Shown here piece after piece: positions 30,080-64,000 of a stretch of DNA of 64,000 nucleotides. Position 1 is the stretch's first letter; each line of letters opens with the position of its first letter. This stretch comes from a virus (taxonomy: Duplodnaviria; Heunggongvirae; Uroviricota; Caudoviricetes). A program made the position numbers and the translations under genes. The notes beneath the pieces were generated by a model. The model was not told the DNA's origin, searched no databases, and saw nothing but the letters and a program-made list of their open reading frames with translations. Location of the stretch: the IMG/VR virus record IMGVR_UViG_3300033070_001565, one strand, 5' to 3'.

Positions 30080-30080
30080 A

Positions 30081-30773
30081 ATGATCGGGTCTTATGTCAA
30101 ACGTCTCGTTGAAGCTGCACTCGGAATCGACTCTGCACTAGCTGCAGGTCTTGCACTCTGTGTAAATAAAGGTTCAGGTGGAGCTTACATTGTGCTTTAC
30201 GATGCAAAGGAGTACGTTAAACACGCTCTTGCGAATGCGAAACACATTGGCGAAATGACAGATCCCCGTACGGCTGAATGTGTGTACGGGTTTATCAGAA
30301 TGCATGTGGTCGATCCAAGCAACGGAGAGAGTTACGGTTCATACGAGATTGCGAACTCAGTTGCAAGGAAAGGGTACGGACCGTTCATGTACGATGTTGC
30401 AATGAGTCTTGGAAAACCCGTCATATCAGATCGCGGATCTGTTTCTCCAGATGCACAAAAAATTTGGAAATACTACAAAGATAACAGATCTGACGTGAAG
30501 AAGCTTCCGCTCGATAACAAATCTGCACCGAGAACACCAGAAACTTTTGATGACTCGATTGTATTTGACGCCGGAAAGGAATCTGAACTCACGAACCCTC
30601 TTAATTTTGCATATAAGAGTGGTGGAATCGATTTTTCAAAATTGACTCAGAGACACGAAAAAGTCTTGCAGCTGCTGAAAACGAAAATACCAGAACTGAC
30701 TCCTGACAGAGTAGAGTCAAGTCTTAATCATTTTGCTGAAGATTACTTCATCAAGAGATATCACGGAGTCTGA
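30081..30773 (+). CDS. tandem paralogue 8 of 8
   Basis: MIGSYVKRLVEAAL...KGYGPFMYD...LPLDNKSAPRTPETFDDS. Confidence 0.6.
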   Translation: MIGSYVKRLVEAALGIDSALAAGLALCVNKGSGGAYIVLYDAKEYVKHALANAKHIGEMTDPRTAECVYGFIRMHVVDPSNGESYGSYEIANSVARKGYGPFMYDVAMSLGKPVISDRGSVSPDAQKIWKYYKDNRSDVKKLPLDNKSAPRTPETFDDSIVFDAGKESELTNPLNFAYKSGGIDFSKLTQRHEKVLQLLKTKIPELTPDRVESSLNHFAEDYFIKRYHGV

Positions 30774-51728: not shown

Positions 51729-51776
51729 TTGATTCAAATCTATATTTGTTGTTGCGTGTTTTCAGCTAATTGATTT

Positions 51777-51977
51777 ATGAAGATCGAAAGGATACCAGTG
51801 AAGGGACCCCTGTCAAAGGGAACGCTCGCTGGTGTGAGAGCAGAGGCTGCCGGCAAGCCGTACGACAGATTCGGTGTTGTTCTCAGTGTAGAGAACGGCA
51901 GACTGTTTTTGATAACTGCAGCAGGACCAACGTGGTGGCCCTGGCGTATGTCCTACGTGGCTCTTGGCATGTCATAG
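51777..51977 (+). CDS. small ORF, possibly related to the microgene family
   Basis: ATG ORF of 66 aa. IPVKGPL...VVLSVENGRLFLI...WWPW resembles the family. Confidence 0.2.
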   Translation: MKIERIPVKGPLSKGTLAGVRAEAAGKPYDRFGVVLSVENGRLFLITAAGPTWWPWRMSYVALGMS

Positions 51978-52144
51978 TGCCACCGCGCGTACCTTCTGAT
52001 TGAACTAGCAGCCATCCATTTAGAAAATTCGTTGAAATGGGCGTCAATCCTACGAGTACGTTCGCAGACTGCAATTGCAATATACAAGTAATACGAATCG
52101 TCAAGACTGTCTGCAAAAAGAGTTCCCGGTGTTACGGCTTCCAC
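51953..52144 (-). CDS. microgene array member (MET-PG...WKP family), most downstream copy
   Basis: GTG-EAVTPGTLF. The junction GTGGAAGCCGTAA is shared with the upstream copy. Confidence 0.4.
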   Translation of the reverse strand: MEAVTPGTLFADSLDDSYYLYIAIAVCERTRRIDAHFNEFSKWMAASSIRRYARWHYDMPRAT

Positions 52145-52317
52145 AATACCTCGCGATTCATGAGATCAGCTCTTTCAAAGAACAATCCCATGTGAACGTA
52201 TCCATCGTTATCAATGATATACGTCCCTCTTATACAGCATGACACGATGATTCTTATCTTATCTCGATCGATTTGAGCTCTGTACACGCAGCCTGGAATG
52301 AGATCAGCTCGTTTCAC
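52132..52317 (-). CDS. microgene array member
   Basis: MKRADLIPGCVY...IRIIVSC...VLWKP*. Confidence 0.5.
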   Translation of the reverse strand: MKRADLIPGCVYRAQIDRDKIRIIVSCCIRGTYIIDNDGYVHMGLFFERADLMNREVLWKP

Positions 52318-52321
52318 AGGA

Positions 52322-52519
52322 TTAAGTACATTTCCACAGAGTTACTCGTTTATAGGCGCCGTTAGAGTCTATCGAATCTGGCGTACGGACGATCTTGCCA
52401 GCGATAAACACGTAACGAGTTCCGATTAGAACAGATATTGAACTGAGCATTTCCTCGTAAAAGAAATCAGCTCTCAGAGATCCTGATACATCACACTCTC
52501 GCGAATCTGATCGACTCAT
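52322..52519 (-). CDS. microgene array member
   Basis: ...VSGSL...ISVLIG...TLWKCT*. Confidence 0.4.
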   Translation of the reverse strand: MSRSDSRECDVSGSLRADFFYEEMLSSISVLIGTRYVFIAGKIVRTPDSIDSNGAYKRVTLWKCT

Positions 52520-52742
52520 GAGTGTATCTCAAGTTTCTTTTTGCAATTTTTGATCGTGCTGTGAGAGTTTTGCCATTCACACCTCTACCTGGGTAGTACA
52601 AAACGATCTGCACTGTTATTTGCGGGTCAACGGTTGGCCATACTTGAACTCTCAGATCTCCTACGCCTGGAGCAATATCAATCGCCTCCTCTGTGTGGGT
52701 TTTGAGAATTTGTTTCATTTCCTGAATTGCGATTTTTCTCAT
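52491..52742 (-). CDS. microgene array member (diverged)
   Basis: IAPGVGDLRVQVW...ITVQIVLY. Confidence 0.3.
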   Translation of the reverse strand: MRKIAIQEMKQILKTHTEEAIDIAPGVGDLRVQVWPTVDPQITVQIVLYYPGRGVNGKTLTARSKIAKRNLRYTHESIRFARV

Positions 52743-52972
52743 GCCGGCTCGATGTAATAGCAGTGTGGAGTCCTACGACACACGAGATACATTTTTGTTT
52801 CGCATACGATTCCCGTTGAGACGAGATGTATCAATTCTTCATTGTGAATTGAAAGTGTCACGCCCATGTAATACCTGATGAATCTGTCCCCTGGGCGCAG
52901 CGACTTTTCCTTGCTTACGAGAAGCGATCCATTTGGAATCTTGTTTGCAGAGAGTTCGTCAATGATGAGCAT
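52739..52972 (-). CDS. microgene array member
   Basis: KIPNGSLLV...VTLSIHN, with an ATGA junction. Confidence 0.4.
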   Translation of the reverse strand: MLIIDELSANKIPNGSLLVSKEKSLRPGDRFIRYYMGVTLSIHNEELIHLVSTGIVCETKMYLVCRRTPHCYYIEPA

Positions 52973-53225
52973 TCTTTTTTGGGTTCCAGATGAGCTTGTG
53001 TTGTGCTACATAGTAGATTCTTACTGGCAAAAAAACATAATTTTCGATTGCGTGCTGAGACAGGGTACGAATTTCACCCTCTTTGAAATTTACGCCAATA
53101 ATCGCAGAAACACGTAGTGATCTAACATGTTTGCAAACAGAGAGCTGGCCTGGCTGCGGTGTCGGAGTCCATTTCGGACGATCCTGTCTTACAGCACGAT
53201 CAAGATCTTCTACAATATCTCTCAT
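52959..53225 (-). CDS. microgene array member
   Basis: PQPGQLSV...LRVSAIIGV...LIWNP plus an extension. Confidence 0.4.
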   Translation of the reverse strand: MRDIVEDLDRAVRQDRPKWTPTPQPGQLSVCKHVRSLRVSAIIGVNFKEGEIRTLSQHAIENYVFLPVRIYYVAQHKLIWNPKKNAHH

Positions 53226-53452
53226 ATCTTTGGAGCAAAGATAACACGTGGCAAGCAGAATTGAGTTTGAAGCATGCTACCAATCTTCACTTCTGTGCTT
53301 GCGAGCTCAACGAGTCCTCCTTGCACAGTGATCTCGAGTCTCACGGAGTTGGCTCCTTGCTTGTAACCAGGCAGAAACTGGAGAAGCGACCCTGGCAGTG
53401 ACATGTCATGCATCTGAGTCAGAAATGACAATTTGGTATTCATCATAGCCAC
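53222..53452 (-). CDS. microgene array member
   Basis: MSLPGSLLQF...VRLEITVQ, with an ATGA junction. Confidence 0.4.
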   Translation of the reverse strand: MAMMNTKLSFLTQMHDMSLPGSLLQFLPGYKQGANSVRLEITVQGGLVELASTEVKIGSMLQTQFCLPRVIFAPKI

Positions 53453-53545
53453 CTGATGTTAGCTGTTTTACTGATGCAATGTCGTCATCAAGATCTACGT
53501 GCCAGCCTACGAGAATGTAAACATTTGCTACACCGTTATCGTGCG

Positions 53546-53770
53546 TTAGCCAACCGATGGTACCCGGTAGCTTAACTTGCATGTGTACAATACATTGGCA
53601 TCGCGCGAGATAATTCTATTTCTCAGTCCGTCTGAAGTCAGAGTAATAGTGTGCGCTTGTACACACTCTACAATACTAGAACTGATGATAATGTGGAGCA
53701 GACGATTAGTACTGGCCGGATGATATGCGTAACGTCTTATATTTCCTGGATGCATGTAGCTATTTTCCAT
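53546..53770 (-). CDS. microgene array member
   Basis: MENSYMHPGNIRRYAY...LLHIIISSS. Confidence 0.45.
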   Translation of the reverse strand: MENSYMHPGNIRRYAYHPASTNRLLHIIISSSIVECVQAHTITLTSDGLRNRIISRDANVLYTCKLSYRVPSVG

Positions 53771-53993
53771 TTGTCAGTTCCTCGAGCGTTGTGATACCTT
53801 TCTTCCACATTGAATATGATATTGAAAATCCGACAACGCCATGAACGTTCTGCAGAACAGTGACCCAGAAATCTTTCTTTTTGTGACGTTTTATAGCTAT
53901 GCACAGCATTGGCATACAAGAGTTGTTGATCTTGTTATAGCGCATAGCAAGTCTTAGCTGTCCAGTTACAGGCCCACGATATTTTGTTTGCAT
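53760..53993 (-). CDS. microgene array member
   Basis: GPVTGQLRLAM...MLCIAI...SMWKKG. Confidence 0.35.
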   Translation of the reverse strand: MQTKYRGPVTGQLRLAMRYNKINNSCMPMLCIAIKRHKKKDFWVTVLQNVHGVVGFSISYSMWKKGITTLEELTNGK

Positions 53994-54172
53994 ATCAGAG
54001 CTTTATGTTCGTACCAGGGAATCGAGAGATTTACATTTTTTGCAACACCTTCGGCTGACAGCATGTAAGCATCGAAAGATGTCTGCGATTTCTGTTTGCA
54101 CGATATGATAATGAACGGATACTTCGTAACGATCGCATATAGGCAGCCAGACTCAATTTTCATGGGTGTCAT
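53966..54172 (-). CDS. microgene array member
   Basis: MKIESGCLYAIVTKYPFIIISC...IPWYE. Confidence 0.4.
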   Translation of the reverse strand: MTPMKIESGCLYAIVTKYPFIIISCKQKSQTSFDAYMLSAEGVAKNVNLSIPWYEHKALICKQNIVGL

Positions 54173-54587
54173 GATTGAGTCTCTCCTCGACGAGGCGTAG
54201 ATGCTCAGATGGGAATGTCACATGAACTACTTGCTTGAAATCATCGTGAACAAGCTTCCACCGCCAGGCTTTGCTCTTTCGTGTTCCAAATCCTTGCATC
54301 CAATCTTTGACACGATCGGAATCAGAGTCTCTCTTCACAAGCTTGAGAAATTTTTGTGCTGATCGTGAGTCGGAGAATACGATCCAGATCCTGTCTCGGC
54401 ACGCCAGCGGCACTCGATGCTTGTGACTCACTCCGCAGATTCCTCCGCAGCTTCCCTGACAAGAATTACGGGTCGCACATCCCAGTTCGTTTAGTAGAAC
54501 AATGAGCTTCGATATTTTCTTATCGACACTCACGATCTGGCCACCGAGAGCGATCTTGTCTTTTCTGTGACGCTTCAATTGCACCAT
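54153..54587 (-). CDS. array-embedded larger Cys-rich ORF (144 aa)
   Basis: LGGQIVSV...CATRNSCQGSCGGIC...WRWKL. The N-terminal junction is ATGGTGCAATTGA. Confidence 0.35.
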   Translation of the reverse strand: MVQLKRHRKDKIALGGQIVSVDKKISKLIVLLNELGCATRNSCQGSCGGICGVSHKHRVPLACRDRIWIVFSDSRSAQKFLKLVKRDSDSDRVKDWMQGFGTRKSKAWRWKLVHDDFKQVVHVTFPSEHLRLVEERLNHDTHEN

Positions 54588-54757
54588 ACTTCTTCGAATC
54601 CAGTGAAATGGTGAGAAAATTCGATAAATTTCGGACCAGCCATAATTCGAAGTTGTTTTCCGTATGCTATGCTGATCACGATTAGAATTTGACGTTTGTG
54701 ACCGTTGAGGCCGGCTGTCACTTCAATGTTTCCCGGGGCCGGCGAGATCTTATTCAC
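54575..54757 (-). CDS. microgene array member
   Basis: MNKISPAPGNIEV...ILIVISIA...EEVWCN*. Confidence 0.5.
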   Translation of the reverse strand: MNKISPAPGNIEVTAGLNGHKRQILIVISIAYGKQLRIMAGPKFIEFSHHFTGFEEVWCN

Positions 54758-54930
54758 GATTTTACTTCTATGTAATGTTGCTTACGGCACCACAAGTCAC
54801 TGCTAAATCCAGCAGACGAGAGTCCCTGAAATGTGTACAAATACTGATTTATTGAGAAATTCAAATGTTTCTCAGCTAGCGCGATTCTTACGCACGTAAA
54901 CGTTTCTCCTTCAACATTCCTGACATAGAA

Positions 54931-55167
54931 TCATAATTTCATATTACACCGAGTTGAGCCTGGTTGCACCAACGTACGGAGTGATCGGAATTCTCGTGTT
55001 TCCCACCAAGTGTTGTTGCTAAATTCGGTGGAACCAATCCATGAGATTGTGTGATCGGGAGAGTACTCTGACATTCGACTTTTTTTATGACTTGTTATCG
55101 TTGAAAGAGTAATGAAATACCTATTGCCGATTTCAACAAGGCACCCTGGTACAGGATCACAGTTCAT
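54931..55167 (-). CDS. microgene array member
   Basis: MNCDPVPGCLVEI...FITLSTI...ISWIGS plus an extension. ATGA overlap with the upstream copy. Confidence 0.45.
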   Translation of the reverse strand: MNCDPVPGCLVEIGNRYFITLSTITSHKKSRMSEYSPDHTISWIGSTEFSNNTWWETREFRSLRTLVQPGSTRCNMKL

Positions 55168-55349
55168 TGTGGACTCCACAGAACATCACGTGCAGAGTTA
55201 CGGTACCTGTCATCTAGTCTCGTGCAAGTACCATTTGAAAATATTACAAGGTTGAGATGATTTTTTCTATGAATCGTAATATACGTTTGAGTCGTCCACC
55301 GACTTTCGTAGTGTATGATCGAACCTGGCAGAATATTCGTGTCAGACAT
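55164..55349 (-). CDS. microgene array member
   Basis: MSDTNILPGSIIHY...YITIH...VLWSPQ*. Confidence 0.5.
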   Translation of the reverse strand: MSDTNILPGSIIHYESRWTTQTYITIHRKNHLNLVIFSNGTCTRLDDRYRNSARDVLWSPQ

Positions 55350-55352
55350 ATC

Positions 55353-55553
55353 TTATGTGATACTATATTTTTTCACAGTGTCGTGAAATAGCGTCGTACG
55401 TCGAATCGTACCTTCAGAATGAAGAAAGATAAATTTTTTTCTTTTGTAGCCAGTAACATCTTCGCAACTCAATACCACTGAGAGTTTAAGTTCGTTTCCG
55501 GAAAATTCATTGTATAGAGATCCAATCGTCCCTAGAGGAATAAACGTGACCAT
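55353..55553 (-). CDS. microgene array member
   Basis: MVTFIPLGTIGSLY...LKLSVVLSC. Confidence 0.4.
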   Translation of the reverse strand: MVTFIPLGTIGSLYNEFSGNELKLSVVLSCEDVTGYKRKKFIFLHSEGTIRRTTLFHDTVKKYSIT

Positions 55554-55741
55554 ATCAATTCCTTTCTCATGCTCAGATGTGGAAAATCTGAGAACGAGTT
55601 ATCAATCCCGTGTGGTGTAATGTATTTTGATTGTGAATCTGTTGATGATAGAACGATTGCAAGAATTTCGAACGATTCATCTCCGCTGATCGCGCCAGCA
55701 AAGCAGATCGAATCTTTCATCAGTGCGCCTGGACGATTCAT
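55532..55741 (-). CDS. microgene array member
   Basis: MNRPGALM...FEILAIVLSS...ELIWSR. Confidence 0.45.
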   Translation of the reverse strand: MNRPGALMKDSICFAGAISGDESFEILAIVLSSTDSQSKYITPHGIDNSFSDFPHLSMRKELIWSRLFL

Positions 55742-55944
55742 ACGAGAATTTTCACTCCGCTTACATCACCTTTTAGACTGATTCTTTCGAATTTGTGAGA
55801 TTGCAGAAAGTAAAAATATCTGTAATCAGGATTATCAGACGGCGTGATTGCAACCGTCAACCAAAGATTTGCTGTCATTCCTTTGGATCGAACGTTTGAT
55901 TTGAAGATTATCACGCATCCCAACCCGAGCCCAAGAACACTCAT
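55738..55944 (-). CDS. microgene array member
   Basis: LGLGCVIIF...LWLTVAIT, with an ATGA junction. Confidence 0.4.
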   Translation of the reverse strand: MSVLGLGLGCVIIFKSNVRSKGMTANLWLTVAITPSDNPDYRYFYFLQSHKFERISLKGDVSGVKILV

Positions 55945-56147
55945 GTTACAGAATGGCTTGCAAAGCAGTCAAATTCATCATCGTCCATTCGTGATACCCT
56001 TACACGATGATTTCCACCGATCGTAACGATTTCGTAAATCTTCTCATCTTCGAGATAGACGAATGAAAGCAAGATTCTCGAGTAACAAGGATTATCTTGT
56101 TTGATGTCTCGATATGTGTAAAGCCGGCCGATCGTTACATCGCTCAA
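55941..56147 (-). CDS. microgene array member
   Basis: MSDVTIGRLYTY...ILLSFVYL...IVTIGG, with an ATGA junction. Confidence 0.4.
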   Translation of the reverse strand: MSDVTIGRLYTYRDIKQDNPCYSRILLSFVYLEDEKIYEIVTIGGNHRVRVSRMDDDEFDCFASHSVT

Positions 56148-56410
56148 TAGAGAATCTTTCTTCCGCCTCGCGGTCCAACTGCGTACAGGGATGTAGCGTA
56201 ATTCTCGACTCCTCCCAATCTCAAAAGCTTCTCTAGAATTGTTTTCATAAACTCCCGTGCTTCCGGCTCGCTATCGAATGAGTACTCACGTACGTTTTCA
56301 TCAGCGTTTGGATCGAGCCAATCATCGTGGTACGTACCGTCTGTCATCATGTCTGCAAATTCATCACGATTCTGGTACACGCCGACAATATACGATTTTA
56401 CATTCTTCAC
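56144..56410 (-). CDS. array-embedded acidic ORF (non-family, 88 aa, GTG start)
   Basis: Rich in D and E, with no PG or WKP motif. ATGA overlap with the downstream member. Confidence 0.35.
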   Translation of the reverse strand: MKNVKSYIVGVYQNRDEFADMMTDGTYHDDWLDPNADENVREYSFDSEPEAREFMKTILEKLLRLGGVENYATSLYAVGPRGGRKILY

Positions 56411-56450
56411 TTTTGAATTGTACGCTTTCGTGACAGTGATTACACGTCAG

Positions 56451-56609
56451 TTACATCACAAGTTTCGTGAGTCTGTTGTTAGTTCTGAGGCATAGGAAGT
56501 ATCGCACGCCGCTAATGTTAACACAAGATAGAACGATTGCGCTGTAAGAAATCTCAGCATGATAGTCGATTTCAATGATTTTGCCGGGCTCCATCACTAC
56601 ACGCTCCAT
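56451..56609 (-). CDS. microgene array member (52 aa, below the ORF-track cutoff)
   Basis: My translation gives MERVVMEPGKIIEIDYHAEISYSAIVLSCVNISGVRYFLCLRTNNRLTKLVM*. The upstream 13-nt junction is ATGGAGCGTGTAG. Confidence 0.45.
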   Translation of the reverse strand: MERVVMEPGKIIEIDYHAEISYSAIVLSCVNISGVRYFLCLRTNNRLTKLVM

Positions 56610-56794
56610 GTACACATTTTTGTATACTCTCGTTGCAAATCAAGAATGACCCCGCGGGCTGAAACTTTAAAACAACGTTTCCATGATCTTGGAGATCTGT
56701 AATCATTCACAGATATGATGACGTCAACATACGAACGTTTCTGTTCCTTCGAGAATGTTGACACCAGAATTCCCTGCACTGTCAGAGCTTCCAT
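56597..56794 (-). CDS. microgene array member
   Basis: MEALTVQGILVS...YVDVIISV...CTWSV*. Confidence 0.45.
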   Translation of the reverse strand: MEALTVQGILVSTFSKEQKRSYVDVIISVNDYRSPRSWKRCFKVSARGVILDLQREYTKMCTWSV

Positions 56795-57000
56795 TCTGCT
56801 GTTATCCCAAAGGGAAGTTTGAATTCGTAGGCGCTCAGAGCAATCGCTCTCTTTTGCATTCCGTGGTACGAAATATACTTGTAGTATCTGAATCGCTCGT
56901 CTGAGTCAGCTGACAAAACGATTGACAGTGAGAGAAAATTGTCATGTTCCTCTCGTGCAAAAGACACGATCGAACCCGGGTTACTCAAGCAGGAATCCAC
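56782..57000 (-). CDS. microgene array member
   Basis: MDSCLSNPGSIVSF...LSLSIVLSA...AEWKL*. Confidence 0.5.
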   Translation of the reverse strand: MDSCLSNPGSIVSFAREEHDNFLSLSIVLSADSDERFRYYKYISYHGMQKRAIALSAYEFKLPFGITAEWKL

Positions 57001-57215
57001 CGTGCTTCTATCGCCGATAGTTCGAATGAGTCATGAGGAAGTTCGCTCGGCTCTGATACGCCCTCAGGAAATGCCACAGAGATAATATCAAATTTGTCGC
57101 AAAACTTTACAGACACTACAATTCGAATCTGAGCTGAATTATCATGTGGGAGCAAGTCATAGCTATAGATCATCCCAGGACAAGATAGCTTTCTTTCGAA
57201 GTTCACGGTTTCCAT
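56985..57215 (-). CDS. microgene array member
   Basis: METVNFERKLSCPGMIYSY...IRIVVSV...ARWIPA*. Confidence 0.5.
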   Translation of the reverse strand: METVNFERKLSCPGMIYSYDLLPHDNSAQIRIVVSVKFCDKFDIISVAFPEGVSEPSELPHDSFELSAIEARWIPA

Positions 57216-57418
57216 ATCACACGCTGTCCTTCTAGCGCTTCAGTACTCCATCTGGATTGACTCAGCCTATGTGGGCCCAAAAATGTGAATATCGAAACGT
57301 TCCCTCTGTATGTATCCCTATTTTTCTTGTTCTGCACGACAACGTAAATGTGTATTTGAGATGTACCTGAACAGTTCGCAGATGTGAAATTGCTTATGAA
57401 CACCGTGCCAGGATTCAT
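57203..57418 (-). CDS. microgene array member
   Basis: MNPGTVFISNF...IHIYVVVQ...RVIWKP*. Confidence 0.5.
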   Translation of the reverse strand: MNPGTVFISNFTSANCSGTSQIHIYVVVQNKKNRDTYRGNVSIFTFLGPHRLSQSRWSTEALEGQRVIWKP

Positions 57419-57624
57419 CTACGCTTCCACACAACGAGAGTTTCGTTGATATTCGGTATAACATTCAGTTCGCGTATTTCAGAGTCAGATCCAATCATAT
57501 ATGCACGGTTTTGTGCATCAACGCAGATTGACAACCATATCACCGGTGCATCTGGATAATGCGCATTCATCAGCATTCCAAACCACAACGTATTGTGTAC
57601 TTTTCCATCCATTCTGATCTCCAA
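57415..57624 (-). CDS. microgene array member (diverged, no PG)
   Basis: ...PVIWLSICV...LVVWKRR*. Confidence 0.4.
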   Translation of the reverse strand: MEIRMDGKVHNTLWFGMLMNAHYPDAPVIWLSICVDAQNRAYMIGSDSEIRELNVIPNINETLVVWKRR

Positions 57625-57767
57625 TGCTGAGATTTCGGTCTACCATCTGACTCAAGCGTTATCAATTTGTAATCGTACGAGATCAGATCAGATACTTGGA
57701 TCGATAGAATTATCGAAGGATATGTTCCGACGAATATGATCATCCCTGGACTTTGTTTGCACTCCAT
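57570..57767 (-). CDS. microgene array member (stop lost at the junction)
   Basis: MECKQSPGMIIFV...IILSIQV...HWRSEW, then reads into the next copy. Confidence 0.4.
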   Translation of the reverse strand: MECKQSPGMIIFVGTYPSIILSIQVSDLISYDYKLITLESDGRPKSQHWRSEWMEKYTIRCGLEC

Positions 57768-57913
57768 ATCAGAGATCTCTCTATTCTTGCATTTGAAATT
57801 TCGAAAGAAATCGATATTCCGCGCGTTTCGAGCATTCTGAGCTCCATGATTGTATCATTCATCACTGATTTTGCGCTGATGATGATTCCTCCGCAAGAGA
57901 GGCTTCCGATCAT
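57740..57913 (-). CDS. microgene array member
   Basis: (VEP)MIGSLSCGGIIISA...SLIWSAN. Confidence 0.45.
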   Translation of the reverse strand: MIGSLSCGGIIISAKSVMNDTIMELRMLETRGISISFEISNARIERSLIWSANKVQG

Positions 57914-58077
57914 GGGTTCCACACGCTTTTCGCTGATGCACCCTTACTCTTAAGCATCTTCTCAAATCCAATTTTGTTACGTGAAACTCCGGTCGACCAC
58001 CCTCCAGAAAGAAAAATGTTATCCGTACCGAGTCTGATTTGGAGTTTCATGAAGAAGCTCTGACTGATCATGATCAT
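57910..58077 (-). CDS. microgene array member (55 aa, missing from the ORF track)
   Basis: My translation gives MIMISQSFFMKLQIRLGTDNIFLSGGW...KSVWNP*. ATGA overlaps with both neighbours. Confidence 0.45.
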   Translation of the reverse strand: MIMISQSFFMKLQIRLGTDNIFLSGGWSTGVSRNKIGFEKMLKSKGASAKSVWNP

Positions 58078-58277
58078 TTCACCTGGCATGGTGACTCATC
58101 ATAGTATCGTATAATCTCATTTTCATGTATCTTTACGATAGAATCGTGATCAAGAATCATGCAATGCGACCCCATTCCTCCGAGGTCAATACGAGATATG
58201 ACGATCATGAGTCCGCGAGATATTGCGTTAACCCAACGTATCTGACCAGGAGCAGGCCGATTCAGTGACTTTTCCAT
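58074..58277 (-). CDS. microgene array member
   Basis: MEKSLNRPAPGQIRWV...LMIVISRI. Confidence 0.5.
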   Translation of the reverse strand: MEKSLNRPAPGQIRWVNAISRGLMIVISRIDLGGMGSHCMILDHDSIVKIHENEIIRYYDESPCQVK

Positions 58278-58430
58278 ACAGATTTCATTTGAATTTTAAT
58301 AAATTCACCTTGCACTGAGAAAATCTTTGATCCTGAGCCTATGACTGAATATTCCATTTTTGCTGCGATAGAACGAAATACATCATTGCAGAAGTTCCAA
58401 GGTAATCTTTGATGCAGATCAGATCTCCGC

Positions 58431-58637
58431 TCATTGACATTCTGAATTCCACACTTCTTCGAAGAACACGCTCATTGATAGATCAGAAAACCAGCCCAAC
58501 GACTTCCCGTTCAATACGACTTGAGTAATCGGACCATTTGAAATGTACTTTGCGATTACAATTCTGAAATCTTTTTTGTGATCGCCAGAAGCAATACTTC
58601 CGGGTGCATAGTTCACACTGTCCACACGACCTCCCAC
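58431..58637 (-). CDS. microgene array member
   Basis: MGGRVDSVNYAPGSIA...FRIVIAKY...EEVWNSECQ*. Confidence 0.5.
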   Translation of the reverse strand: MGGRVDSVNYAPGSIASGDHKKDFRIVIAKYISNGPITQVVLNGKSLGWFSDLSMSVFFEEVWNSECQ

Positions 58638-58843
58638 TTGTCCGTAACGTACGCTACTGAAATTCTCTTCTCAAATCCGTTTACCTGAAGAATTCCAACG
58701 TACGCTCGTTCGAATCTTGAGATGATAATGACAGGGTAACCGTAATCGCTTGAACTCATATCGAAGTGTGTTATGAGATCTCCCGGTTTGGGATCACTGC
58801 ACGTAGTCACTTGTCGTGCTCCAAAAAGTTTCATGTTTGGCAT
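58613..58843 (-). CDS. microgene array member
   Basis: KPGDLITHF...YPVIIISR...KWEVVWTV*. Confidence 0.45.
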   Translation of the reverse strand: MPNMKLFGARQVTTCSDPKPGDLITHFDMSSSDYGYPVIIISRFERAYVGILQVNGFEKRISVAYVTDKWEVVWTV

Positions 58844-58951
58844 CGATGAGCAACTCAGTTACAATTCTGTGAACTGTTTTCGATGTGAGTGTGTTTTCGG
58901 TCCGCATTGAGCGAGATCGAAATATAGAAAAGATTGCCAGTGTAATTCATA

Positions 58952-59176
58952 TCACCCGGGATGTGCTGAGGCTTCTTCAACTGACCACTCCAGCAGATTG
59001 TAACGAGAGTATATGGACCCTGTACCAACAGTCGTCCCTCGTACAGAGAGAATCATGTACTTGTTCTCGTATCGACCAAGTGCAATGTACAGTCTTTTAC
59101 CCACGCTGGTCTCAGTTGAGAGCACGATTCCGGGTATCACGCTGATGTATATACCGCTATTAGAATAGTCTGACAA
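58952..59176 (-). CDS. microgene array member (TTG/GTG start)
   Basis: VIPGIVLST...RLYIALG...LLEWSV. Confidence 0.4.
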   Translation of the reverse strand: MSDYSNSGIYISVIPGIVLSTETSVGKRLYIALGRYENKYMILSVRGTTVGTGSIYSRYNLLEWSVEEASAHPG

Positions 59177-59333
59177 TCTCGGCCCCCGCGCTTTTCATGT
59201 TCTCTCTCCAAGCAAAACTGTGCAAAAATATACCATTCGTATAAAGAAATTTATTTTCTCCAATGTGAATGTGAATCGTTCTGCTTGCTCTAATCTTTGT
59301 GTGCTCGAGTGTCCCAGGCTCGTCGTCTTGCAT
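59160..59333 (-). CDS. microgene array member (57 aa, missing from the ORF track)
   Basis: My translation gives MQDDEPGTLEH...TIHIHIGE...FAWREN...LF*. Confidence 0.4.
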   Translation of the reverse strand: MQDDEPGTLEHTKIRASRTIHIHIGENKFLYTNGIFLHSFAWRENMKSAGAEIVRLF

Positions 59334-59376
59334 GCTGATTCGATAAAATGTACGTTTTACTACCGTTGATTACACA

Positions 59377-59562
59377 TCATCGTGGCTGCCAAATCGCAAT
59401 TGCAGCAATTTTTTCTGTTAGCGATCGAGCGATGTGTCCGCGTTCGTGGAGACTCAGAAATGAACTGTCATTGCGCAAATACTGATTCGATAGTGCAACG
59501 TGCAAGATTCCTGATTCGAAAAATTTGAAAATCTGTCCTGGCGGGATTCTAATGGAGTCCAT
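59377..59562 (-). CDS. microgene array member
   Basis: MDSIRIPPGQIFKF...ILHVALS...AIWQPR*. Confidence 0.5.
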   Translation of the reverse strand: MDSIRIPPGQIFKFFESGILHVALSNQYLRNDSSFLSLHERGHIARSLTEKIAAIAIWQPR

Positions 59563-59744
59563 AGCGCTCCCTCACTAATCATGTAAGATTTTCTGAGATC
59601 TATTTTAGAGACGCCATCATATGAAATCAATCTCAGTGTGCTCCACTCTTTCTGCTCTGAATCTCGGCAAGATATCACCAGTCGTATTCGACAACCTGCG
59701 AATGAGAATGCGACTCCCGGTACGAATGACTTAACGGTTTCCAC
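59454..59744 (-). CDS. microgene array member with read-through (stop TGA to TTA)
   Basis: VETVKSFVPGVAFSF...IRLVISC...ALWTP-L, then an extension. Confidence 0.45.
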   Translation of the reverse strand: METVKSFVPGVAFSFAGCRIRLVISCRDSEQKEWSTLRLISYDGVSKIDLRKSYMISEGALWTPLESRQDRFSNFSNQESCTLHYRISICAMTVHF

Positions 59745-59944
59745 TGCACTCCTGCACCCGCGGCCGGCGCGTAATCGAACCCAATCCCGATGTCTTCGAT
59801 TCTGAATACAGACACAGAGAAAACACGATTCATGTTATTATTCTCGTCTCTGATGACCGCAAGAATCGCGTAAAGAGTACCGTGTTTTCTGAATGTGAAG
59901 ACTCCTCCTGGGACGAGATCAGCTTTCACTATTTGCATCTCCAC
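59675..59944 (-). CDS. microgene array member with read-through
   Basis: (VE)MQIVKADLVPGGVFTF...LYAILAV...VQWKP-L, then an extension. Confidence 0.45.
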   Translation of the reverse strand: MEMQIVKADLVPGGVFTFRKHGTLYAILAVIRDENNNMNRVFSVSVFRIEDIGIGFDYAPAAGAGVQWKPLSHSYRESHSHSQVVEYDW

Positions 59945-60180
59945 AAGAGATTTTCATTTTCATTTTCACTGTCATTGTCAGTAGAATCGTGTTTTACGTG
60001 CCATATCTTCATGCCAGTATACGAGATCATTGTCTTTTTGAGGAGATCATCCCACCGATCATGTACACGTACTGCTATTGATACGAATAGCGAGTCTCCG
60101 AGAGACACGATATCGCCTGGAATATGACGTACGTTAACGGAATCCAAGATATCTCTCCACTGTCTGAGAGTCGTCTCCAC
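59929..60180 (-). CDS. microgene array member (TTG start at the junction; N-terminally fused frame)
   Basis: ...LDSVNVRHIPGDIVSL...VSIAVRV...LLWRCK*. Confidence 0.4.
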   Translation of the reverse strand: METTLRQWRDILDSVNVRHIPGDIVSLGDSLFVSIAVRVHDRWDDLLKKTMISYTGMKIWHVKHDSTDNDSENENENLLWRCK

Positions 60181-60359
60181 AGTTTACGTGTTATTCCGTT
60201 AGACTGCAGACGTAGTACTGAATCTATCATTCTGTTCGGATCTCTTGTCGATATCCTGCAAGGAGATAGAGTGATGTAACAGCTGGTCACTCTACAATCG
60301 TGCGTGACAAAATAAATGCCACCGTGAATTGTGTCGAATCTATCGCTCATGGTGACCAT
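60075..60359 (-). CDS. microgene array member with read-through
   Basis: MVTMSDRFDTIHGGIYFV...EISWIP-L, then an extension. Confidence 0.45.
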   Translation of the reverse strand: MVTMSDRFDTIHGGIYFVTHDCRVTSCYITLSPCRISTRDPNRMIDSVLRLQSNGITRKLWRRLSDSGEISWIPLTYVIFQAISCLSETRYSYQ

Positions 60360-60538
60360 GAAACGTCATCATCGCAGATCATTCCCTCTTTTCCTTCGTA
60401 AACGCTACGATTGCTAATTCTCACGAAATTTTGCTCTCCACGTTGCGCTACGAGAATGTGTGCAGAGAACACGACGTCTCCGGCCAGCAAGAACCGAATT
60501 GTGCCAGATACTCTCTTGTGGTGCTTCAAGGTTTCCAT
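60347..60538 (-). CDS. microgene array member
   Basis: METLKHHKRVSGTIRF...VSWSP*. The junction ATGGAAACCTTGA was verified. Confidence 0.55.
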   Translation of the reverse strand: METLKHHKRVSGTIRFLLAGDVVFSAHILVAQRGEQNFVRISNRSVYEGKEGMICDDDVSWSP

Positions 60539-60717
60539 ATTGCTTGCGGTACTCTATTCGTCGTTATGCGTTTCTTGATACCACAGCTGTACAGCACGAG
60601 TACGATGTTGTTGCTCGCCAGCCCTGTGAACGCATCCAGAGATCTTCCGATAGATATCGAACACACTCCGTTTGCGTTTTCAAAAAGACACCCTGGAATC
60701 TTGTTAACGAGTTCCAT
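60526..60717 (-). CDS. microgene array member
   Basis: MELVNKIPGCLF...VCSISIG...AIWKP*. Confidence 0.55.
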   Translation of the reverse strand: MELVNKIPGCLFENANGVCSISIGRSLDAFTGLASNNIVLVLYSCGIKKRITTNRVPQAIWKP

Positions 60718-60902
60718 TTGTAGCGACTGATGTGCAATTTCTTTTGCATCTCTCTATCGTAGAACCCATGTACTGTACCGAAGCTCCACAATCTCATGCA
60801 ATGCGTGTACCCTTCCTCGATTCCACCAGATAGAAAAAGTACAACATATGGGTGATTCTCCCAAGTTACGAGTTCTCCAGGAGTAAGATCTGCGGATTCC
60901 AC
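60564..60902 (-). CDS. microgene array member with read-through
   Basis: MESADLTPGELVTW...YVVLFLSG...RYKWNS-L, then an extension. Confidence 0.45.
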   Translation of the reverse strand: MESADLTPGELVTWENHPYVVLFLSGGIEEGYTHCMRLWSFGTVHGFYDREMQKKLHISRYKWNSLTRFQGVFLKTQTECVRYLSEDLWMRSQGWRATTSYSCCTAVVSRNA

Positions 60903-61093
60903 ACGATATCCTTTTGCATCTCGTGATACACATAAGACTTTCGAACTCTAAGTTGCTCGCCAAGCCTAAAATGAGAGCCGACATACAGTGATTGTAGGTG
61001 ACCGTGACCGAATACGATGTAAAGCGCAGTTGATCGATCGTTTCTTCGGCCATAACTGTAAATGCTTCCTGATATCATCGTTACTGACTCCAT
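60866..61093 (-). CDS. microgene array member with read-through
   Basis: MESVTMISGSIYSY...ALYIVFG...IVWNP, then an extension. Confidence 0.45.
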   Translation of the reverse strand: MESVTMISGSIYSYGRRNDRSTALYIVFGHGHLQSLYVGSHFRLGEQLRVRKSYVYHEMQKDIVWNPQILLLENS

Positions 61094-61269
61094 TTGATGA
61101 AATTCTTCTCTTCAGACGCCCATATCATGTACAGATGCGCAGCTCTCGAATTTAGTGTGAGAGATGGTTTGCCCGATGAGACTCTCGAGATGATAACGTA
61201 AGGGTACGTTGAGCAATCAACAGTGAAGCCAGCGTGAGAAATCAAGCAACCAGGAGTAATGATCTCCAT
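61081..61269 (-). CDS. microgene array member
   Basis: MEIITPGCLISH...YVIISRV...IKWSQ*. Confidence 0.5.
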   Translation of the reverse strand: MEIITPGCLISHAGFTVDCSTYPYVIISRVSSGKPSLTLNSRAAHLYMIWASEEKNFIKWSQ

Positions 61270-61311
61270 TCGTTCTAATATCATCATACAAAATTTGTGA
61301 AATCTATACAA

Positions 61312-61494
61312 TCACGCGTGTGTCCATATCATTCCATCTTTGCTAGCCCATCTGAGACCACATACACCACTTTTCGTTAGTTGACGAACTGTCTGAGTGA
61401 ACTTTCCATATGAAACGAAGATCGGAATGTACACGAAGCAAGATCCGTTAAACTTTTTAACTGAATGAAGACACCCTGGCGTAACGGTTCCCAT
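61312..61494 (-). CDS. microgene array member
   Basis: MGTVTPGCLHSV...FVYIPIFV...MIWTHA*. Confidence 0.5.
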   Translation of the reverse strand: MGTVTPGCLHSVKKFNGSCFVYIPIFVSYGKFTQTVRQLTKSGVCGLRWASKDGMIWTHA

Positions 61495-61676
61495 TCGTTC
61501 ACCGCGTCGTCATCGTCCCACACTGATTCTTCTTGTATCGTACCATCAGAGAGCGTGAACAGCGCAGATGCAATACTGAGATGCGAAGATGATATCACGA
61601 CCCTTAGCCACAGTGTTCCTCTGGGCCGGTAGCAGACACCACTCAAGATCGCTCCTACTTTCACTGTGAGCTCCAT
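61377..61676 (-). CDS. microgene array member with read-through
   Basis: MELTVKVGAILSGVCY...LRVVISS...NEWEP-L, then an extension. Confidence 0.45.
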   Translation of the reverse strand: MELTVKVGAILSGVCYRPRGTLWLRVVISSSHLSIASALFTLSDGTIQEESVWDDDDAVNEWEPLRQGVFIQLKSLTDLASCTFRSSFHMESSLRQFVN

Positions 61677-61915
61677 ATTTCATCACCGTGGATGAGAACG
61701 CATATGTGAACCCCAGTATGATCGAGTTTGTATCTCAACTGAAATCTCATCGCTTCGTACACTTCATTTTTTACGTAAGAAATACAAATCTGTACGTGAG
61801 AAGAATTTTCGCCGAGTATTGAATACATGCATCCGGGAATTATCTTTTCCATAGTCTTATGTCGTACTTCGTAACCTTTCACCCGCCCGGGCTGGTACAT
61901 AAATTTGGTACCCAC
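61661..61915 (-). CDS. microgene array member (two N-terminal modules: MGTKFMYQPG and MEKIIPGCMY)
   Basis: ...VQICISYV...EIWSSQ*. Confidence 0.45.
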   Translation of the reverse strand: MGTKFMYQPGRVKGYEVRHKTMEKIIPGCMYSILGENSSHVQICISYVKNEVYEAMRFQLRYKLDHTGVHICVLIHGDEIWSSQ

Positions 61916-62252
61916 AGGACTGGATCGTCTTTGGGATCGAATCTGATGCAGTGACGATAACCCACCGATGTGATTCGATTCTCGGATTCAAAAGCAATCT
62001 GAATCGACATACGAACAATTCCGTTTTGATCTGTTCTCGGACGGATATTTCGGAGCGTGCCAGACGTAATTGCTGTTCCCAAAGTATCCACGGTTCAATC
62101 AGCTCCCTGTCCCATGATTCGATCTCGTTTACACCACGATGAGTGAGAATGGCTGTATTTTCTTTTTGCTTCCATGAGATTGTCACATTCACCGCAGCAG
62201 AACACTCCGTGAGTTCGAACGATACAAGCATACCTGGAGTTACGGTTTCCAT
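61857..62252 (-). CDS. microgene array member with long read-through
   Basis: METVTPGMLVSF...AAVNVTIS...PWILWEQQ, then an extension. Confidence 0.45.
   Translation of the reverse strand: METVTPGMLVSFELTECSAAVNVTISWKQKENTAILTHRGVNEIESWDRELIEPWILWEQQLRLARSEISVREQIKTELFVCRFRLLLNPRIESHRWVIVTASDSIPKTIQSCGYQIYVPARAGERLRSTT
61879..62091 (-). CDS. microgene array member (GTG start)
   Basis: VDTLGTAITSGTL...IVRMSIQIA...VLWVP, then an extension. Confidence 0.4.
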   Translation of the reverse strand: MDTLGTAITSGTLRNIRPRTDQNGIVRMSIQIAFESENRITSVGYRHCIRFDPKDDPVLWVPNLCTSPGG

Positions 62253-62422
62253 GCAATGATCTTTCCGTCGATCACCACGTAAGCATCGATTGTACCGATT
62301 CTGTATTTCGAAAGAGTCGTGACATCGTTAAACTGATGAGCATGTTTCAGCACAAAGCAGAGATGTCGCTTGCCTTGAAAGCTAGAGAAACATAGGAGAC
62401 TTCCGGGTGGAACTGGATTCAT
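62240..62422 (-). CDS. microgene array member
   Basis: MNPVPPGSLLCF...HLCFVLK...IIAWKP*. Confidence 0.55.
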   Translation of the reverse strand: MNPVPPGSLLCFSSFQGKRHLCFVLKHAHQFNDVTTLSKYRIGTIDAYVVIDGKIIAWKP

Positions 62423-62610
62423 GATCCCTTTGGACAGTACAAGATACACTCTTTGTAACCTTGCGTCCACGAGTGAAAACCGACAGAGCACAGTCTTACG
62501 GATACATTTTTTACAATGCTCTTGTGCTGTACAAGTATTGTTAGCTTTGCGCATTTATCGTGCTTGATGTTGACCCTTGCGATAATCGATCCTGGCAACA
62601 CACTTTTCAT
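62419..62610 (-). CDS. microgene array member
   Basis: (ME)MKSVLPGSIIAR...KLTILVQ. The ATGA overlap was verified at 62607-62610. Confidence 0.55.
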   Translation of the reverse strand: MKSVLPGSIIARVNIKHDKCAKLTILVQHKSIVKNVSVRLCSVGFHSWTQGYKECILYCPKGS

Positions 62611-62798
62611 TTCCATATAACTTTATCTCCTTTTGCAAATGTCCACGTGAAAATTCCAACCTGTGAGATTCCCACGTACCGAAACGTATTTTCACTCTCA
62701 CGTGAGATGTACAGTTCAACGTTGCTGATATTTGCTCTCAAATTAGAATTGTTGTACAGAGATATCAGCGAGCCTGAAAGGAATGCGTTATCACTCAT
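62607..62798 (-). CDS. microgene array member
   Basis: MSDNAFLSGSLISL...VELYISR...KVIWK*. Confidence 0.5.
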   Translation of the reverse strand: MSDNAFLSGSLISLYNNSNLRANISNVELYISRESENTFRYVGISQVGIFTWTFAKGDKVIWK

Positions 62799-62961
62799 CT
62801 TGAGCACTCCAAACGATTCGATCGCTATCACTGCAAATCCATGTACGAACTTGCCCCCGCACGAAGTATTTGTAGTCTCCGAGATACAATACGGGTACTT
62901 CGTGACTCATGAACCACGGACACACGAGAGCTCCTGACGTTGGAAATTTTACGGTTTCCAC
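62791..62961 (-). CDS. microgene array member (GTG start)
   Basis: VETVKFPTSGALVC...PVLYLGD...IVWSAQDE*. Confidence 0.45.
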   Translation of the reverse strand: METVKFPTSGALVCPWFMSHEVPVLYLGDYKYFVRGQVRTWICSDSDRIVWSAQDE

Positions 62962-62966
62962 ATGAC

Positions 62967-63131
62967 TCAATCGTTCTCCCACAGTATCCATTGTTCGATT
63001 CCCTCTGACGAAATACACGTAAATTTGAAGCGCTTCCCAGCTTTAAATTCTGAGAGATATATGCAAGCTTTTGCTTGATTTTCTATATCTGTGACTGCTT
63101 CGAACAGCATACCTGGTACGCAGCCTTTCAT
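62967..63131 (-). CDS. microgene array member
   Basis: MKGCVPGMLFEAV...ACIYLSE...WILWEND*. A remnant MWKP* follows immediately. Confidence 0.4.
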   Translation of the reverse strand: MKGCVPGMLFEAVTDIENQAKACIYLSEFKAGKRFKFTCISSEGIEQWILWEND

Positions 63132-63147
63132 CTGATGAGGTGCTATT

Positions 63148-63327
63148 TTAGCCACTCTGCGACCTCCATATGGCCCGTACGGGCATCTTTGATGACCAGA
63201 TGCCAACTCCTCCGACGCTAATGCACAGTGTACCAGAACTCAACCTGGGTGTCAGAAATATGAGCAGTTTTCCATTAAAATCAGCCCATACGGCCGGTGG
63301 AGAAATGGAAAAAAGACCTCCGATCAT
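63148..63327 (-). CDS. microgene array member
   Basis: MIGGLFSISPP...LLIFLTP...AIWRSQSG*, with an ATGA junction. Confidence 0.5.
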   Translation of the reverse strand: MIGGLFSISPPAVWADFNGKLLIFLTPRLSSGTLCISVGGVGIWSSKMPVRAIWRSQSG

Positions 63328-63551
63328 GGTTTCCACAGTGCACCTCTCATTCCAATCTGTCTGTGATGCCATGTGTAGCACCCATCCCAAGAGAGTCTCA
63401 AGTCTCCTCCCTCCCATCCTGAAAGTACAATCACGAGAAAGATCTTACCTATTCTTTCTTTTACGGGAGAAGAAGAAACGAGACACCCTGGAATATCGTA
63501 AACTGAACGGTTGTTCATCTTTATCTCCCCAGAGCAGACCAAGATCTCCAA
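63324..63551 (-). CDS. microgene array member
   Basis: ...SVYDIPGCLVSS...IFLVIVLS...ALWKP*. Confidence 0.5.
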   Translation of the reverse strand: MEILVCSGEIKMNNRSVYDIPGCLVSSSPVKERIGKIFLVIVLSGWEGGDLRLSWDGCYTWHHRQIGMRGALWKP

Positions 63552-63744
63552 TTGTCCTGTTGTACCATAGCTGCATACATCTTGTATGAAGTCTCAGATC
63601 GCCAATTATCTCGCTACCTGGAATACTCTTAGGACCAAGCACAATCGCTAGCACCGGTGCTCCTTGCGATTCGCTGTACCAAGAAATAGAGATCAGATTT
63701 CCAGGAATATCATACACAGACGGTCCGATCACGTGGCTCGCCAT
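63445..63744 (-). CDS. microgene array member with read-through
   Basis: MASHVIGPSVYDIPGNLISI...VLAIVLG...LLWG, then an extension. Confidence 0.4.
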   Translation of the reverse strand: MASHVIGPSVYDIPGNLISISWYSESQGAPVLAIVLGPKSIPGSEIIGDLRLHTRCMQLWYNRTIGDLGLLWGDKDEQPFSLRYSRVSRFFFSRKRKNR

Positions 63745-63926
63745 AGTACCCTCTCCAGAACGCTTTTCCCATAGATGTATGACACACCCTTTACTGAAAT
63801 CCTGTAATGTGCGTCAGATGCCCAGATGGGAGAAGATGAGATGACAACCGAGAGCTCGATCTTCTTTCTATTGCCTATATGTTTGAACTCAAGCAGTATC
63901 ACGCTTCCAGGAGTCATGTTTCCCAT
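63729..63926 (-). CDS. microgene array member
   Basis: MGNMTPGSVILLEF...ELSVVISS...VLWRAT*. Confidence 0.5.
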   Translation of the reverse strand: MGNMTPGSVILLEFKHIGNRKKIELSVVISSSPIWASDAHYRISVKGVSYIYGKSVLERVLWRAT

Positions 63927-64000
63927 ACGATCATCTGAGTTTTATCTGAAAATGTTCCTATTCCAACTCTTCTATACGTGAGCATGGTATGCTCGTACCA
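63914..64000 (-). CDS. microgene array member, 5'-partial (continues beyond the window)
   Basis: Open frame from the window edge. ...VGIGTF...MIVWET* with the junction ATGGGAAACATGA into the next copy. Confidence 0.35.
   Translation of the reverse strand, partial: WYEHTMLTYRRVGIGTFSDKTQMIVWET

Follow-up and report, generated by a model that had tools for sequence, protein, structure and literature searches.

Organization of the microgene array

The minus strand of a 64,000-nucleotide (nt) stretch of DNA from a virus of the class Caudoviricetes (IMG/VR record IMGVR_UViG_3300033070_001565), the whole of which is referred to here as the window, is tiled from position 51953 to the window end by short open reading frames (ORFs) of about 55-75 amino acids (aa) each. 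At many junctions between these microgenes the downstream gene's start codon lies inside a Trp codon near where the upstream gene ends, so that the same bases encode the C-terminus of one protein and the N-terminus of the next. This dual-coding boundary, which the original prediction had described as a 13-nt motif (ATGGAAACCNTGA) recurring at many boundaries, is the subject of the present analysis.

51953..64000 (-): tandem microgene array, at least 61 units of one orphan family, defined by gene calls, alignment and codon-position substitutions

All units are co-oriented, same-strand paralogs arranged in tandem. A chain of 61 consecutive units was curated, and all junction counts refer to this chain unless stated otherwise. 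The array runs about 1.8 kb past the window end to its start, as seen in contig L080, and its copy number is about 70-87 over a length of 14-17 kb. Two groups of contigs were used for comparison: L080 and L081, which represent the window's own haplotype (99.9% identical to the window), and L005, L006 and L007, which represent a sister haplotype (95-97% identical).

Start codons embedded in tryptophan codons

A general rule was identified at 32 of the 61 junctions: an RTG start codon (20 ATG and 12 GTG) shares its TG with an in-frame TGG, the codon for the upstream ORF's conserved C-terminal Trp. The resulting overlap measures 13 nt at 13 junctions, which are listed below with the upstream C-terminus written over the downstream N-terminus; the stop of the upstream unit lies at the first coordinate of each.

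63914..63926 (-): ATGGGAAACATGA, W-E-T-stop over M-G-N; ATGA alternative start, picked by another pipeline (P0016)
63324..63336 (-): GTGGAAACCATGA, L-W-K-P-stop over V(M)-E-T-M; GTG start, with an ATGA alternative
62240..62252 (-): ATGGAAACCGTAA, TAA stop; site of a one-unit 165-nt indel relative to L006, with the crossover inside ATGGAAACNGTNACTCCNGG
61081..61093 (-): ATGGAGTCAGTAA, K-W-S-Q-stop over M-E-S-V; GTGGAGGCAGGAG in L006, where the stop is lost
60526..60538 (-): ATGGAAACCTTGA, exact motif, I-W-K-P-stop over M-E-T-L
60347..60359 (-): ATGGTCACCATGA, S-W-S-P-stop over M-V-T-M
58613..58625 (-): GTGGACAGTGTGA, V-W-T-V-stop over V(M)-D-S-V
57910..57922 (-): GTGGAACCCATGA, V-W-N-P-stop over V(M)-E-P-M
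57203..57215 (-): ATGGAAACCGTGA, exact motif, I-W-K-P-stop over M-E-T-V; GTGA alternative start present
56782..56794 (-): ATGGAAGCTCTGA, E-W-K-L-stop over M-E-A-L
56597..56609 (-): ATGGAGCGTGTAG, T-W-S-V-stop over M-E-R-V
54575..54587 (-): ATGGTGCAATTGA, V-W-C-N-stop over M-V-Q-L; leads into an atypical 144-aa member
52132..52144 (-): GTGGAAGCCGTAA, L-W-K-P-stop over V(M)-E-A-V; precedes the last array unit

The overlap is 16 nt at six junctions, and other overlaps measure 10, 19, 22, 28, 37 and 43 nt. At eight junctions the start-on-Trp (RTGGA) is kept and the upstream stop has been lost, with the upstream ORF extending 22-77 codons into the next unit. A 16-nt junction and relic junctions of the latter kind include the following.

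63729..63749 (-): 16-nt junction ATGGCGAGCCACGTGA, also the breakpoint of a 1710-nt indel relative to L006
59732..59744 (-): relic junction GTGGAAACCGTTA, start-on-Trp kept and stop lost; the upstream ORF runs 22 codons into the next unit
59550-59562 (-): relic junction ATGGACTCCATTA, start kept and upstream stop lost
61482-61494, 60705-60717 and 62949-62961 (-): further relic junctions

At 61857-62252 (-), stop loss has turned a normal unit (METVTPG...ILWEQQ) into a 131-aa ORF that spans the whole of an overlapping unit at 61879-62091 (-) (VDTLGTAITSG...VLWVP), which lies in another frame. The long read-through ORFs of the array are stop-loss variants, not distinct genes.

Nine junctions carry a plain 4-nt NTGA overlap, in agreement with the original prediction that boundaries of the ATGA type occur elsewhere in the array. 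In the downstream third (52-56 kb) most junctions are of the ATGA or another type, and the genes there are equally constrained. Gene calls made on L006 by an independent pipeline gave overlaps of 13 nt seven times, 16 nt five times and 4 nt eight times, and 31 of the 37 overlaps called were congruent to 1 mod 3.

The start-in-Trp overlap is real and far from chance. The exact 13-mer has two minus-strand copies, at 57203-57215 and 60526-60538, where shuffled sequence gave an expectation of 0.00. With at most two mismatches allowed, the minus strand of the array holds 12 sites, about 1 per kb, compared with about 0.07 per kb elsewhere in the window. A logo built from the 32 Trp-embedded starts has an invariant RTGG, followed by A in 26. 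The remainder is a weak consensus (AAACCNTGA) of 0.2-0.55 bits per position, with C in 18-19 of the 32 starts at +7 and +8, T in 19 at +10 and A in 21 at +12.

At eight of the 13-nt junctions position 10 also creates an NTGA start overlapping the stop. Other pipelines chose the shorter product at NTGA (P0016) or, likewise, one from an internal ATG (P0008), and the choice of start at these eight junctions is ambiguous. At least 10 units have no start upstream of the conserved PG motif other than the Trp-embedded codon.

The earlier observation is real yet over-specified, the recurring part being the start in a Trp codon, at a distance from the stop that varies. The dual-coding reading was correct, and the two exact matches do encode W-K-P-stop over M-E-T; the junction at 63914-63926 is likewise as had been described, with divergent codons. 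At 62240-62252 the predicted W-K-P-stop and M-E-T are encoded, but the stop is TAA rather than TGA, and the same residues claimed for 56782-56794 are in fact W-K-L-stop over M-E-A. As for the claim that the motif itself marks many boundaries, it holds for the start in Trp and fails for the literal 13-mer.

The microgene family and selection upon it

Alignment placed 48 of the 61 units in one very divergent family (alignment A1; mean column identity 14%). Its members share the pattern M-x(3-8)-PG-x-hydrophobic, followed by a hydrophobic strand (l.IvIS), a G and a C-terminal (V/I)W-x-P. A paralog was found by BLASTP for only five of the 61 units, and in four of these five the best match was the adjacent unit. 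Structure prediction with AlphaFold2 (AF2) gave a consistent barrel for the family, and the encoded proteins are predicted to be SH3-like beta-barrels of about 60 aa. The closest folds named were small beta-barrels of the SH3-like, Tudor or KOW type, such as those of a TraI subdomain, ribosomal protein L19, FeoA and the C-terminal Tudor domain of UvrD/PcrA.

Substitutions between the haplotypes were counted by codon position in regions with a single gene model. The 400 substitutions were split 110/75/215 over codon positions 1/2/3, each with about 3313 sites (chi2=84, p=5e-19), and the third-position excess was repeated in each third of the array. Synonymous and non-synonymous substitutions numbered 197 and 201 (dN/dS about 0.3). 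The concentration of substitutions on codon position 3 indicates that the microgenes are real and under purifying, rather than diversifying, selection overall.

Constraint on the overlapping bases

The original prediction had proposed a conserved nucleotide-level element, to be recognized by conservation at synonymous positions of a logo. A change at any position of the 13-mer is non-synonymous in one frame or the other, and a logo of synonymous positions therefore cannot separate nucleotide from protein constraint. Between-haplotype divergence and comparisons of overlapping with non-overlapping units were used as substitutes.

The divergence data spoke against such an element. Short overlaps carried 17 substitutions in 532 sites (3.2%), compared with 3.9% for the whole array, and positions +3 to +12 after the start were substituted at 4.3%; only the start codon was low (1.7%). 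Stops and a start have been lost between the haplotypes, as at 61081-61093 and at 58357, where ATG is ATT in L006. Codon positions within the long read-through overlaps held too few substitutions for a pattern. No extra constraint beyond RTGG is seen.

Comparison of start classes bore on the idea that the conserved protein termini are partly a by-product of the overlap, which was upheld in one direction. Of 29 starts that lie off Trp, only 5 have a second codon beginning with G, whereas at Trp-embedded starts the G is obligatory and is followed by A in 26 of 32. As the non-Trp starts lack M-E, the conserved N-terminal Glu would mostly be TGG-A read in the other frame, and the M-E N-terminus looks like a by-product of the overlapping W-K/N/S. 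The base after TGG is A in 24 of the 28 units whose Trp hosts a start and in 7 of 16 others (Fisher p=0.006, among units that are not phylogenetically independent). This hints at pressure from the downstream frame or the initiation region, with the relatedness of the units as a confounder.

Translation signals at the junctions

Shine-Dalgarno (SD)-like complementarity, which had been suggested as a feature of the upstream 3' ends, showed no excess at the junctions over other genes of the phage. Pairing with ACCUCCUUA at a free energy (dG) of -4 kcal/mol or below was found for 38% of array starts and 37% of 30 other phage genes, a modest margin over the 19-21% of RTG positions that were random or unused. 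Across the genome SD use is weak, and the junctions do not stand out in this respect. Local folding energy and unpaired probability at the junctions equaled those of mid-gene controls, and promoter-like and terminator-like matches in the array showed no excess over shuffles. Most plus-strand genes of the window, given the 37% at or below -4 kcal/mol, have no recognizable SD sequence, which points to a host that makes little use of SD sequences.

Gene pairs overlapping at -4 and -1 are established cases of termination-reinitiation (PMC6728339, PMC10666635, PMC12548453). Reinitiation falls steeply with distance, only downstream spacings having been measured; among 2.66 million prokaryotic gene pairs, overlaps of -4, -1 and -8 outnumber those of -10 nt or more at least 10-fold, and long overlaps in the same phase as -4/-1 are reported as depleted (PMC10666635). 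The abundance of -13 and -16 overlaps in the array is unusual.

The array resembles known coupled overlapping pairs (NTGA, TGATG, NTGNNTGA) in being co-directional, in a downstream start that lies at the stop or slightly upstream of it and in the phase of -4 and -1; the nine canonical NTGA junctions and the eight 13-nt junctions that also contain NTGA are of this kind. Unlike those pairs, its modal overlaps are 13 and 16 nt, a class at least 10-fold rarer than -4 (PMC10666635), and its start is embedded in a conserved Trp codon in a layout iterated about 30 times; coupling here is a prediction.

Whole-unit differences between haplotypes

Related haplotypes were compared for unit-length indels, as the original prediction had suggested. 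The array of the window's haplotype is about 13.9 kb long and that of the sister haplotype about 16.9 kb, and four unit-scale indels of 165, 199, 976 and 1710 nt were found between the window and the sister.

The 165-nt indel corresponds to one unit (METVTPGTLL...DIVWKQ) and falls exactly at the junction 62240-62252, with the breakpoint +13 to +18 from the unit start. The extra unit is flanked at both ends by ATGGAAAC(C/A)GT(A/T)ACTCC(T/A)GG; the window is the recombinant, with the switch within ACTCC. ATGGAAACNGTNACTCCNGG is common to both ends, and there is a 20-nt near-identity at this junction. The 1710-nt indel (about nine units) lies at 63741-63749 of the window, where the homology switches right after the 9-nt GTACTATGG, a sequence that L006 has at both ends; this breakpoint is -8 to +3 nt from a unit start. 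The 976-nt indel (about five units) has its breakpoint 11-35 nt past a Trp-embedded ATG, the exact position being imprecise. The fourth indel shares just 3-5 nt of identity.

53995..54015 (-): breakpoint of the 199-nt indel relative to L006 (one unit), at about 54003; the Trp codon lies about 12 nt upstream of this point in the C-terminal tail, and the next start follows about 25 nt further on

All four breakpoints thus lie within about 35 nt of a boundary of a unit of about 195 nt, which has a probability of about 0.01 under a uniform null. The longest inter-unit DNA repeats of the array (D1, D2, D5 and D7) are all at junctions, which is notable given how few units have a paralog that BLASTP can find. 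The proposal that the junction acts as a recombination or duplication boundary is borne out to the extent that these indels lie near boundaries, one of them inside ATGGAAACNGTNACTCCNGG and one at GTACTATGG. The positions support in-register recombination at the junction; a mechanistic preference for it would be supported by them, not proven.

Three regions of the array contain damaged units.

54754-55179 (-): unit interrupted by an in-frame TGA at 54931 (...LVQPGSTRCNMKL*FYVRNVEGETF...), after which the same frame continues; the sister has a 14-nt insertion
58262-58452 and 58855-59176 (-): truncated or degenerate units, of 31 aa and 37 aa at 58262-58452 and with a poor match at 58855-59028

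The unit at 54754-55179 is probably a decaying copy. Over the other two regions L006 has 1-nt and 8-nt indels in addition to the lost start at 58357, and pipelines call no genes over much of them. The frameshifting indels between the haplotypes measure 8, 1 and 14 nt, and the decayed units point to birth-and-death turnover.

Interpretation of the junction

The reading preferred here, with a probability of roughly 0.6, is that the motif is the inherited dual-coding unit boundary of an old tandem microgene, marking the points of whole-unit gain and loss, rather than a free-standing signal. Such a boundary would incidentally set part of both protein termini. The ancestral unit would have had the start of the next copy embedded in a Trp codon near the C-terminus of the previous one (xxR-TGG read as RTG-G), with the stop about three codons on, and each copy would have inherited this layout. 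Because ATG and TGG specify single-codon residues and both are needed, RTGG could not drift while the proteins diverged to about 14% identity. The neighboring bases, being dual-coding, would have drifted more slowly across paralogs and left the weak AAACCNTGA consensus, and the M-E(-T) N-terminus would be largely the W-K/N/S(-P) read in the other frame. The inherited layout is supported by the relic junctions, which keep RTGGA despite the lost stop, by overlaps that are nearly all 1 mod 3, and by the fact that such pairwise similarity as survives mostly links neighboring units.

It is plausible that the array is expressed as one long polycistronic message in which downstream cistrons are fed by upstream ribosomes. 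This would fit the common orientation of the units, the lack of any promoter-like or terminator-like excess, SD-like pairing on a par with other genes of the phage, and the unremarkable structure at the junctions. A terminating ribosome would find the next start 1-16 nt behind it, within its own footprint, and the cistrons would be chain-translated by termination-reinitiation with no ribosome-binding sites of their own; the boundary layout probably supports such chain translation. The boundary together with the first codons (M-E-T-V-T-P-G) is also the longest DNA identity among otherwise unrecognizable units, and at the level of the sequence it can be seen to act as microhomology for in-register unequal recombination. 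Units would accordingly come and go as wholes, by birth and death or in the manner of an accordion.

Several points weigh against this interpretation. The recombination evidence comes from two haplotypes and four indels only, and selection against chimeric, misfolding proteins could place the surviving breakpoints at boundaries even if recombination had no preference for them. Comparisons among paralogs are not phylogenetically independent. With respect to translation, 13 junctions at -13 and six at -16 lie outside the canonical window (about -8 to +6 nt), and such overlaps are rare in published data; moreover, the NTGA at eight of the 13-nt junctions offers a canonical -4 route, and the Trp-embedded start may be unused there.

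Three other explanations were considered. That the overlap reflects pure phylogenetic inertia, with no present function in translation or recombination and with RTGG kept as any change destroys the Trp or the start, is unlikely, despite being in keeping with the undiminished divergence at the junctions between haplotypes, the free loss of stops and the equal constraint on genes in the 52-56 kb third, where most junctions are of other types. It leaves unexplained that each of the four unit-scale indels has its breakpoint at or close to a boundary, in two cases inside shared junction sequence, that the top inter-unit DNA repeats are junctional, and that long overlaps of this phase, normally purged in prokaryotes (PMC10666635), are here a modal class. 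Somewhat less likely still is that the 13-mer is a selected cis-acting element for translational coupling, a reinitiation site like the calicivirus termination-upstream element, to which the protein termini are passengers. The motif is about 14-fold enriched on the coding strand of the array, the A after TGG is associated with Trp codons that serve as starts, there is a mild excess of purines at -5, -8, -9 and -14, and with weak SD use genome-wide another aid to initiation would be useful. Such an element is difficult to reconcile with only two exact copies, 0.2-0.55 bits per position beyond RTGGA, a start-to-stop distance ranging from 4 to 43 nt, junctions that evolve no more slowly than the rest of the array and lose their stops, SD-like pairing no better than in other phage genes, and no structure signal.

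It is very improbable that the ORFs are not genes at all, whether as a non-coding or RNA-level tandem repeat with chance open frames or as a polyprotein produced via programmed -1 frameshifting at the junctions. The units are very short, have no database homologues beyond this lineage, and change frame at almost every junction; against this, the strong third-position excess in the annotated frames already refutes the non-coding version, every unit opens with ATG, GTG or TTG, the AF2 barrel is consistent, and no tRNA genes or Rfam families were found in the window. For the frameshift version, inspection of the junctions revealed no X-XXY-YYZ slippery heptamer in the upstream frame, whose codons (xxR-TGG-AAA-CCN) are not slippery, and no excess structure.

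A more far-reaching reading, in which the junction would be a selected modular connector serving both chain translation of the about 70-87 SD-poor cistrons (with a back-step of 1-16 nt) and in-register microhomology for whole-unit expansion and contraction of the SH3-like microproteins, is doubtful at present. If it were true, the array would be a phage "gene accordion" with its hinge in the coding overlap, and its fast-turnover repertoire might be, for example, a counter-defence or host-interaction arsenal. The poxvirus K3L gene is an example of a genomic accordion. In phage T4, where dmd-tifA is such a system, tandem amplifications arise via recombination at microhomologies of 6-10 bp (PMC9391042). 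Like both of these systems, the array consists of same-orientation tandem copies, differs by whole units in copy number between close relatives and has breakpoints at short shared sequences. Unlike them, its copies are ancient and extremely diverged (mean 14% identity) rather than fresh identical repeats, and each unit carries the microhomology within its coding overlap.

The underlying phenomena, namely overlapping coupled genes and tandem arrays evolving by microhomology recombination, are already known. The array would add two things: a tandem gene family whose coding overlap also sets its recombination register, and, on the short list of phage tandem expansions, an orphan multigene family of very large size. 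If the Trp-embedded starts are used, the array would also be a natural test bed for the upstream reach of reinitiation, with about 30 variants and overlaps of 4 to 43 nt on one message, in a field where only downstream spacings have been measured and long overlaps of this phase have been treated as rare leftovers. The disagreement of gene callers on array starts is a lesson for annotation, as is the origin of long read-through ORFs in such arrays by stop loss in an ordinary unit.

Search for relatives of the family

Sequence searches returned few relatives of the microgenes. The family had no match in Pfam, and among the 48 members scanned against PHROGs there was one weak match to phrog_10625 and one to phrog_28638. 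An exhaustive hidden Markov model (HMM) search of 1.84 billion representatives recovered only orthologues of the same lineage and spurious repeat proteins; P0003, P0005, P0007, P0009 and P0012, which had long multi-stretch HMM matches, were rejected as unrelated repeat proteins. A tblastn search with one member gave no match. No family member was detected by HMM in relatives fetched via the flanking RNA ligase (viral contigs L001-L004 and metagenome contigs L061-L079) or via GroEL (L056-L060). A pattern scan of IMG/VR for TGGAAACCNTNACNCCNGG gave 48 single chance matches and no array, and nothing specific on comparable phage microgene arrays was found in the literature. The array is a large orphan gene array for which no described counterpart was found.

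In a search of BFVD, nine of the top 50 weak structural matches were proteins of 60-140 aa from the accession block A0A516L/A0A516M, which may represent another phage with a multi-copy small-barrel family.

Two genes within the array are atypical.

54153-54587 (-): 144-aa gene with a family-like N-terminus (KIALGGQIVSV...LIVLL), then a Cys-rich segment CATRNSCQGSCGGICGVSHKH and a basic tail; no Pfam match
56144-56410 (-): 88-aa acidic protein in mid-array, with no family resemblance and no Pfam match

The 144-aa gene is entered via a 13-nt Trp-embedded junction.

Genome setting

The window looks like part of a jumbo-phage genome and encodes a DnaE-type polymerase, GroEL, a helicase and an Rnl-type RNA ligase.

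2984-6496: DnaE-type polymerase (phrog_405)
40803-42413: GroEL
50688..51737 (-): Rnl-type RNA ligase gene (phrog_548, PF09414), directly downstream of the array; a flank marker outside the microgene family

No close DNA relative of the window was found in 50,697 phage records, megablast of the array and the replication module against these records gave zero matches, and all relatives of the DnaE-type polymerase among phage records were below 31% identity.

A second tandem paralog array, at 25612-30773 (+), comprises eight consecutive genes of 204-249 aa with pairwise identities of 28-47% and E-values down to 2e-72. No Pfam match was found in the three members scanned, and the junctions are mostly ordinary 1-nt and 4-nt overlaps. 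The phage thus has at least two tandemly expanded families.

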